A stretch of DNA of 1,380 nucleotides from Naegleria gruberi. Its lineage: Eukaryota. Within the stretch, counting starts at the first letter, position 1. Every line of letters starts with the position of its first letter. Positions 1 through 1,380 of this stretch are shown here, piece by piece. Location of the stretch: NCBI GenBank assembly GCA_000004985.1, contig GG739433.1, one strand, 5' to 3'. The notes under the pieces were generated by a model. It had not been told where the DNA came from. It worked only from the letters and a program-made list of their open reading frames with translations, and searched no databases. A program made the position numbers and the translations under genes.

Positions 1-683
1 TTGAATAGAACAAGTTTACCCTTACTAGGTTTCACAGTATGAACGAGATTATAGTAGGAGTAATTATTTCCATCCATCATCTCTGGATCATTGTAAAATC
101 GCGTCTCTCCTCCTTTAAAATCATCATTCAAATAAATTAGTAAGGTATAGATACTTCTTTCATTATTGTTTCTTTTGAATTGACCATCAGTGTGAATTTT
201 GAAATATTCTCCGATTTGGTACTTGTTAAATCGCATCATTTCATTGACTCCACAAGCTTTCCAAGTTCCTGCACTATCCACACCGAAAGGAGTTACCATT
301 TTACTAATAGCATCCAAATCAATCCTAGTTTTCAACTTATCAAATATTAAACTTGCAAGATCGGCATCAATGATCAACTCTCGGGTTGAATTTCTATACT
401 CTTTTGGATATTCATCTTGAATTTCCTTAAAGTTCTTACATCTCTTAATTAAGTCCTCGCATTCGTGATGTGAGAAGAAGTTAGGAATGGCCATTAATCG
501 ATTCCAACACCTTTCCTTTAGTGGAGGAGTCGTGACTAGTGGTGAATCATCTGTTTGAAATGATGAGTGCACTTGGACAATACGTTCCTTCACGATCACC
601 TCATCCCCTGGCTCCACAATGGTTTGTACTTGTTGTTGGGCGGCATGAATTTCATGTCCCTTGTGATGTACAATATTTCCCAT
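1..683 (-). CDS. Prolyl 4-hydroxylase-like 2-oxoglutarate/Fe(II)-dependent oxygenase (P4Hc-type). N-terminal 227 codons; the 3' end of the gene runs off the left edge of the window (partial).
   Basis: Hand translation of the minus strand, from the ATG at complement(681-683) through the codon at complement(3-5), gives 227 sense codons with no stop: MGNIVHHKGHEIHAAQQQVQTIVEPGDEVIVKERIVQVHSSFQTDDSPLVTTPPLKERCWNRLMAIPNFFSHHECEDLIKRCKNFKEIQDEYPKEYRNSTRELIIDADLASLIFDKLKTRIDLDAISKMVTPFGVDSAGTWKACGVNEMMRFNKYQIGEYFKIHTDGQFKRNNNERSIYTLLIYLNDDFKGGETRFYNDPEMMDGNNYSYYNLVHTVKPSKGKLVLF... The segment 'IPNFFSHHECEDLI' resembles the start of the P4Hc domain ('xNFLSxEECDxLI' in known P4Hs). 'KIHTDG' is the HxD iron-binding motif. 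'RSIYTLLIYLNDDFKGGETRFY' matches the P4H signature R..T.L.YLN...GGET.F. The second His and the 2OG-binding Arg/Lys would lie beyond the window. Upstream in frame there is a stop (complement of 738-740) and no other ATG, so 683 is the first available start. The start context is ACATAATGG (A at -3), preceded by an A8 tract, which is a typical yeast leader. Confidence 0.8.
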   Translation of the reverse strand, partial: MGNIVHHKGHEIHAAQQQVQTIVEPGDEVIVKERIVQVHSSFQTDDSPLVTTPPLKERCWNRLMAIPNFFSHHECEDLIKRCKNFKEIQDEYPKEYRNSTRELIIDADLASLIFDKLKTRIDLDAISKMVTPFGVDSAGTWKACGVNEMMRFNKYQIGEYFKIHTDGQFKRNNNERSIYTLLIYLNDDFKGGETRFYNDPEMMDGNNYSYYNLVHTVKPSKGKLVLF

Positions 684-822: not shown

Positions 823-856
823 AGGATTGTTCCAATTTGCTACTTGGAGGATTGTT
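823..856. repeat. Direct repeat of the 9-mer AGGATTGTT (823-831 and 848-856), with 25-bp periodicity.
   Basis: aaAGGATTGTTcc at 821-833 and ggAGGATTGTTgc at 846-858, read directly. Both copies contain the ATTGTT core that also occurs at 694-699 and 1002-1007 in the same intergenic region. Confidence 0.8.
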
Positions 857-913
857 GCGATGATATGTCTAATAGTTAAGGTGTAAGGAATTTACTAAAT
901 TCTTCGTCTCTAT

Positions 914-982
914 GGAAGATTGTCATAATTACGACCCTCACTTTTTGACCCACCCACCCCCACATAATTATGACAATCTTCC
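914..982. repeat. Perfect 18-bp inverted repeat (GGAAGATTGTCATAATTA at 914-931 / TAATTATGACAATCTTCC at 965-982) around a 33-bp C-rich spacer (932-964). The 69-bp unit is flanked by TAT on both sides (911-913 and 983-985).
   Basis: Base-by-base check: position i pairs with position 1896-i for i=914..931, all 18 Watson-Crick. Pairs 913/983 (T/T) and 932/964 (C/A) are mismatched, so the arms are sharply bounded. The spacer reads cgaccctcactttttgacccacccacccccaca. Confidence 0.9.
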
Positions 983-1030
983 TATCAGCTGAGATTCGGA
1001 TATTGTTGTTAATGAAGTATCTGGGTTATT

Positions 1031-1328: not shown

Positions 1329-1380
1329 GGCTACGGCCATATCACGATGAATACACCTCATCCCGTCCGATTGAGAAGTA
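1329..1380 (+). rRNA. 5S ribosomal RNA gene, 5' portion (first 52 nt). Truncated by the right edge of the window.
   Basis: GGCTACGGCCATATCACGATGAATACACCTCATCCCGTCCGATTGAGAAGTA aligns without gaps to the 5' end of budding-yeast 5S rRNA (GGTTGCGGCCATATCTACCAGAAAGCACCGTTTCCCGTCCGATCAACTG...). Helix I start G(G)YTRCGGCCATA and the invariant loop B/helix II segment CCCGTCCGAT sit at the correct spacing (29 nt between CATATC and GATY in both). The start coordinate is uncertain by about 1 nt. Confidence 0.8.

Follow-up and report, generated by a model that had tools for sequence, protein, structure and literature searches.

MADE1, a Tc1/mariner-derived MITE mobilised by Hsmar1, is a tiny non-coding unit in which terminal inverted repeats (TIRs) enclose a short core and a short T/A-rich direct repeat flanks the whole. 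Its repeats are 37 bp long, its core is 6 bp, its target duplication is strictly TA, and it is present in thousands of copies. The 69-bp palindromic unit from Naegleria gruberi described here has the same general build, but its repeats are 18 bp, its core is 33 bp and C-rich, and its flank is TAT. At 69 bp the unit still falls within the size range of the smallest MITEs on record, among them the 80-bp MADE1. Tourist-type MITEs of the PIF/Harbinger group have a 3-bp target duplication, for which TAT would be the candidate counterpart in the unit, and share with it termini starting with GG and a place in gene-proximal AT-rich DNA; they differ from it in typically measuring 100-500 bp and in canonically duplicating TWA (TAA/TTA) rather than TAT. 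Ty3 in yeast and TRE5-A and DGLT-A in Dictyostelium resemble the unit only in where they lie, a few tens of bases 5' to a Pol III gene. As retroelements they measure kilobases or occur as solo LTRs, and they have no terminal hairpin; nothing of that kind occurs at this locus.

Hairpins can also be made by template switching, which produces perfect stems in a single event; more than 6,000 such hairpins have been described in primates, from events that include a 28-base one (PMC10710096). Short template-switch mutations that create hairpins are also the subject of two further papers (PMC5453318, PMC8794818). Like the Naegleria unit, the hairpins of these sources (PMC5453318, PMC8794818, PMC10710096) consist of a perfect, adjacent reverse-complement copy with sharp ends, the arms and the spacer each taking up tens of bases. 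In contrast to it, they were proven by ancestral reconstruction, and a flanking direct repeat is not predicted for them.

The locus and its genes

The window, by which we mean the whole stretch of DNA analysed, is 1,380 nt long and constitutes one complete Naegleria gruberi contig. Along it lie a 2OG-oxygenase ORF on the minus strand, a 381-bp spacer (684-1064), a tRNA-Glu(UUC) gene and the 5' half of a 5S rRNA gene (Table 1). A preliminary description of this DNA had drawn on fungi and Dictyostelium for its setting; the DNA instead belongs to N. gruberi, the translation of the oxygenase ORF being 100% identical to the NCBI entry "predicted protein, partial [Naegleria gruberi]". The same description had proposed a divergent oxygenase gene, and indeed the minus-strand protein matches the 2OG-Fe(II) oxygenase domain PF13640 with an E-value of 1.4e-9. 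Only one relative was found among 5.8 billion proteins, an N. gruberi paralogue (41%), and the gene appears to be lineage-restricted. A match to poxvirus C4/C10 stayed below threshold (24.7 bits, with a cut-off of 25 bits).

Table 1. Positions of genes and palindrome components in the 1,380-nt window
Feature	Position	Strand	Remarks
2OG-Fe(II) oxygenase ORF	about 3..683	minus	ATG at 683; open at the left contig end; divergent from the tRNA gene
TGGAGGATTGT	845..855	plus	partial direct copy (10/11) of T913 and the ten left-arm bases that follow it; weak evidence
Left flank TAT	911..913		candidate target-site duplication
Left arm GGAAGATTGTCATAATTA	914..931	plus	18 nt, 28% GC
Loop CGACCCTCACTTTTTGACCCACCCACCCCCACA	932..964	plus	33 nt, 18/33 C; T5 run at 942-946
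Right arm TAATTATGACAATCTTCC	965..982	plus	exact reverse complement of the left arm
Right flank TAT	983..985		candidate target-site duplication
tRNA-Glu(UUC) gene	1065/6-1137/8	plus	TTTT at 1143-1146 shortly 3'
5S rRNA gene, 5' half	1329..1380	plus	29.1 bits, E 0.0014, model positions 1-54; 3' truncated by the contig end

On the other side of the spacer, the tRNA-Glu gene that had been placed 84 bp downstream of the palindromic element was recovered with a UUC anticodon, about 83 nt past the right arm. A 37-mer from this gene had no match in viral contigs. The 5S rRNA gene, of which the first 52 nt are present, follows on the same strand, 190 nt from tRNA-Glu. As many as 924 tRNA genes have been reported for N. 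gruberi (PMC2888827), and repeated tRNA/5S units are therefore plausible in this genome. The contig ends inside the 5S gene at one side and inside the oxygenase ORF at the other, which suggests an assembly break at repeated Pol III gene units. Two boxes common to the tRNA and 5S flanks (TATCTGG and ACCCAC), compared by eye, were set aside, being short enough for chance and lying at differing distances from the two genes. A small palindrome, ATATCGATAT, is located at 1259-1268, some 60 nt before the start of the 5S gene.

A sharply bounded palindrome in the spacer

Direct reading and an inverted-repeat search both gave a 69-bp unit whose arms are complementary at 18/18 positions (100%) around a 33-nt loop, and the perfect arms, the C-rich loop and the TAT/TAT flanks are exactly as the preliminary description had set them out. 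The arms were also said to stop abruptly, and this holds on both sides, the three adjoining pairs of positions (T913/T983, A912/A984 and T911/T985) all being non-complementary. On its inner side each arm ends in the self-complementary hexamer TAATTA. The unit sits 231-299 nt from the oxygenase ATG and at least 83 nt from the tRNA gene, and is thereby upstream of both genes.

We examined how often such a structure would be expected by chance. Across 200 Markov-1 shuffles of the window, perfect inverted repeats with a loop of up to 200 nt reached at most 12 nt, against the 18 nt observed. The analytic expectation of such repeats is 2e-6 to 9e-6 per window, or 0.06-0.25 in a 41-Mb genome of the same composition. 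The palindrome is real and non-random, and it is of a common kind. The flanks are much weaker evidence than the arms: identical 3-mers on both sides have a chance of about 0.02, and any identical flank of at least 2 nt has one of about 0.07, so that TAT/TAT is only suggestive as a non-chance feature. Folding energies were -14.2 kcal/mol for the region as single-stranded DNA (z = -7.7) and, for RNA, -22 kcal/mol on the plus strand and -26.8 kcal/mol on the minus strand, in each case far better than those of shuffled sequences. A spacer of 33 nt would be expected to disfavour a cruciform. A covariance-model search against Rfam 15 found no family in the spacer (684-1064) at E <= 1.

The loop differs strongly in composition from its surroundings. 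It is 55% C within DNA of 34-37% GC, which marks a break between the core and the AT-rich spacer, and it forms the sole strong negative GC-skew excursion in the window. Its minus strand, GGGGGTGGGTGGGTCAAAAAGTGAGGG, has a G4Hunter score of 1.48 across the loop, rising to 1.68 for the best 25 nt; nowhere else in the window does |G4Hunter| reach 1.2. A canonical G-quadruplex motif (four G3+ tracts separated by N1-7) is absent from this strand, which reads G5-T-G3-T-G3-N11-G3; the strict pattern is missed because the third loop is 11 nt, and the relaxed N1-12 pattern matches. Since both the strong skew and the G4-prone stretch are confined to the loop, we argue that arms and core are one unit and not two accidents.

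The unit lacks coding capacity. Frame 2 runs through it without a stop codon on either strand (EDCHNY…NYDNL), and 69 + 3 = 72 is a multiple of three. The only ORF across it has 26 codons (912-992, with its ATG at 912). None of 5.8 billion proteins has words in common with the translations of the unit, searched as a 44-aa concatenation of both, and the ORF was given no weight because no protein shares words with it.

The arms were also compared with the rest of the spacer. The motif GATTGTC, which had been thought to be repeated elsewhere in the spacer, proved to be confined to the two arms. What recurs is only its first six bases, GATTGT, which are found at 693, 825 and 850 and each time continue as GATTGTT. 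Together with the arms this gives five copies, all in the spacer (693-978), against an expectation of 1.2 for the window; a count of five was reached in 2 of 200 shuffles. The fixed pattern TGGARGATTGT, with an expectation of 0.06, looks enriched through its extra copy at 845, 68 nt upstream of the arm. In an unbiased test, a partial copy as good as that of the arm lay within 200 nt for 25% of the window's other 21-mers, and the argument from a repeated arm motif accordingly has little weight either way. Two neighbouring repeats were assigned to chance. An imperfect inverted repeat adjoining the palindrome (772-796 / 882-913), with the best local score in 684-913 (25), was equalled in 56 of 300 shuffles, and the palindrome GAATTTACTAAATTC at 888-902, 12 nt to the left of the main one, was not above chance for 684-913.

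Competing origins of the unit

Our leading reading, which we hold tentatively, is that the 69-bp unit is a copy of a very small non-autonomous MITE or fold-back TIR element, or what an internal deletion has left of such a copy. Its anatomy of perfect TIRs, sharp ends and a 3-bp direct flank is what a minimal MITE would look like. Terminal inverted repeats are present at both ends, complementary at 18/18 positions and sharply bounded, and the unit is short and non-coding, as expected of a MITE. The candidate element would have landed in the spacer common to the divergent oxygenase and tRNA-Glu genes. A transposase encoded elsewhere would bind the two 18-bp ends, excise the unit and paste it into a staggered cut, the repair of which would duplicate TAT; alternatively, the duplication could be parsed as TA with a 1-nt asymmetry of the ends. 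The C-rich core would be cargo, for which no host function is needed.

Several features bear on this MITE-like reading, in both directions. The abrupt 18/18 arms far beyond chance, the TAT/TAT flanks and the enclosure of the C-rich core within the arms speak for it. Against it, 69 bp lies at the extreme low end of MITE sizes and a C-rich core is atypical. As a target-site duplication, TAT/TAT (chance about 0.02-0.07) fits neither TWA nor a clean TA, and the need for either an unusual triplet or a 1-nt asymmetry is a further reason for caution. In addition, the recurrence of T913 and the 10-nt arm start 68 nt upstream hints that the arm is native spacer DNA, and this too counts tentatively against an insertion, although a match of that quality is not unusual. 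Template switching also yields such arms in one step (PMC10710096), which counts against the MITE-like reading as well. The ranking of the readings depends mainly on how the TAT flank is weighed against the unusual size. A Helitron 3' terminus, which would have a short-loop hairpin 10-12 nt ahead of a CTRR end and be inserted between A and T, was not found: the loop is 33 nt long, and the base after the CTGA at 989-992 is G instead of T.

Local inverted duplication by a one-step replication template switch is a rather unlikely but serious alternative. The nascent strand would fold back or jump strand, copy 18 nt of the spacer as its reverse complement and return; the result would be single-copy and never mobile, and the C-rich tract would be spacer DNA that was already there. 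Such an event yields perfect, sharply bounded and closely spaced arms and explains them as well as the MITE-like reading does, and one arm is indeed the exact reverse-complement copy of a sequence 33 nt away. The left arm also resembles native spacer in sharing TGGARGATTGT with position 845, but this recurrence is statistically weak. The identical TAT flanks are not predicted by a template switch and must then be chance (p 0.02-0.07). Moreover, that the sole C-rich tract of the window lies inside the loop needs either a coincidence (about 0.1) or putative fork stalling. The minus strand of the loop is G4-prone, and the G-rich strand of the tract may have stalled the fork and provoked the switch.

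It is improbable, in our judgement, that the palindrome is a selected cis-regulatory module of a shared Pol II/Pol III upstream region. In such a module, a CACCC-like, G4-prone box would lie between two inverted binding sites (GATTGTCA plus TAATTA, which we take to be akin to sites of the homeodomain type). Working in double-stranded form, it could influence the oxygenase promoter, form a boundary toward the tRNA unit, or do both. The position upstream of both genes, the clustering of five GATTGT copies in the spacer and the uniqueness of the C-rich tract in the window are consistent with such a role. T5 on the plus strand is a Pol III stop signal, and the T5 run of the loop would halt Pol III read-through on that strand. 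However, the arms account for two of the five GATTGT copies, the motif was picked with the result in view, and a second, partial copy like that of the arm is nothing unusual. Binding sites need about 6-12 conserved bases rather than 18/18 identity, and a spacing of 33 nt is too long for a simple dimer and would be expected to disfavour cruciform extrusion.

The excised-transposon footprint that the preliminary description had also entertained is very improbable. It would consist of the residual ends of both terminal repeats of a larger transposon plus filler between the copies of the target duplication. TAT on both sides is in keeping with this, and the inverted ends would be the transposon termini, but two complete and equal 18-nt arms around a highly structured, C-rich 33-nt filler form a different pattern from that of known footprints, which comprise a few bases or, for P elements, two abutted ends of up to about 17 nt each. 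Read in this way, a footprint also cannot be told apart from an element with an internal deletion, and such an element is by definition a MITE. Least probable of all is an assembly, cloning or sequencing artefact: the contig is very small and probably of low coverage, the whole scaffold being 1380 bp with both ends broken inside genes, but fold-back cloning inverts whole read segments rather than placing an 18-nt copy within colinear sequence with intact flanking genes, and the lack of similarity between the element and plasmids, vectors or E. coli genomes argues against vector or host contamination.

Search for further copies, and significance

A mobile element is defined by additional copies between different flanks, or by an empty site in a relative, and further copies were sought in sequence collections and in the literature. 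The 18-nt arm gave single-arm hits only, 9 of them in viral contigs and 24 in prokaryotic genomes, numbers of the order expected for an AT-rich 18-mer and at chance level; within 300 nt of these hits, no inverted partner had fewer than 5 mismatches. The failure to find another copy in the viral, prokaryotic and metagenome collections weighs little because these omit the Naegleria genome. The arm sequence was absent from the searchable literature, and no MITE was described there for Naegleria.

If the unit is multi-copy, it would offer a handle on DNA-transposon activity in Naegleria, whose transposon-borne RNA-guided nucleases have been of recent interest. It might then also show a DNA element landing beside Pol III genes, which, retroelements aside, is to our knowledge rare. 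A single-copy unit would be another template-switch hairpin or a small promoter palindrome, of local significance only. Neither outcome opens a long-standing question. It would be a long shot, but the unit could represent the first described ultra-short (69-bp) MITE family of Naegleria (Heterolobosea), with a TAT duplication and a preference for sites upstream of Pol III genes, or else a G-quadruplex box framed by a hairpin and selected in the host, which would keep a Pol II promoter and a Pol III unit apart.

A two-arm pattern (14 + 14 nt with a gap of 15-45) was matched by one metagenome contig, L010 (Ga0255058_10004030). This contig has 53% GC and represents a circular element of about 7.5 kb, with a terminal repeat (1-300 = 7548-7847) and a tyrosine integrase. 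Between 440 and 1070 it carries three copies of a 132-bp tandem repeat and a palindrome of its own with 38-nt arms, which has only AGATTGTCATAATTA (15-18 nt) in common with the arms in the window. We regard L010 as an unrelated prokaryote-type circular element and the shared 15-18 nt as a coincidence, though an odd one. About 100 nt upstream of its palindrome, L010 also contains CCCACCCACCACCCCC, an odd echo of the loop in the window.
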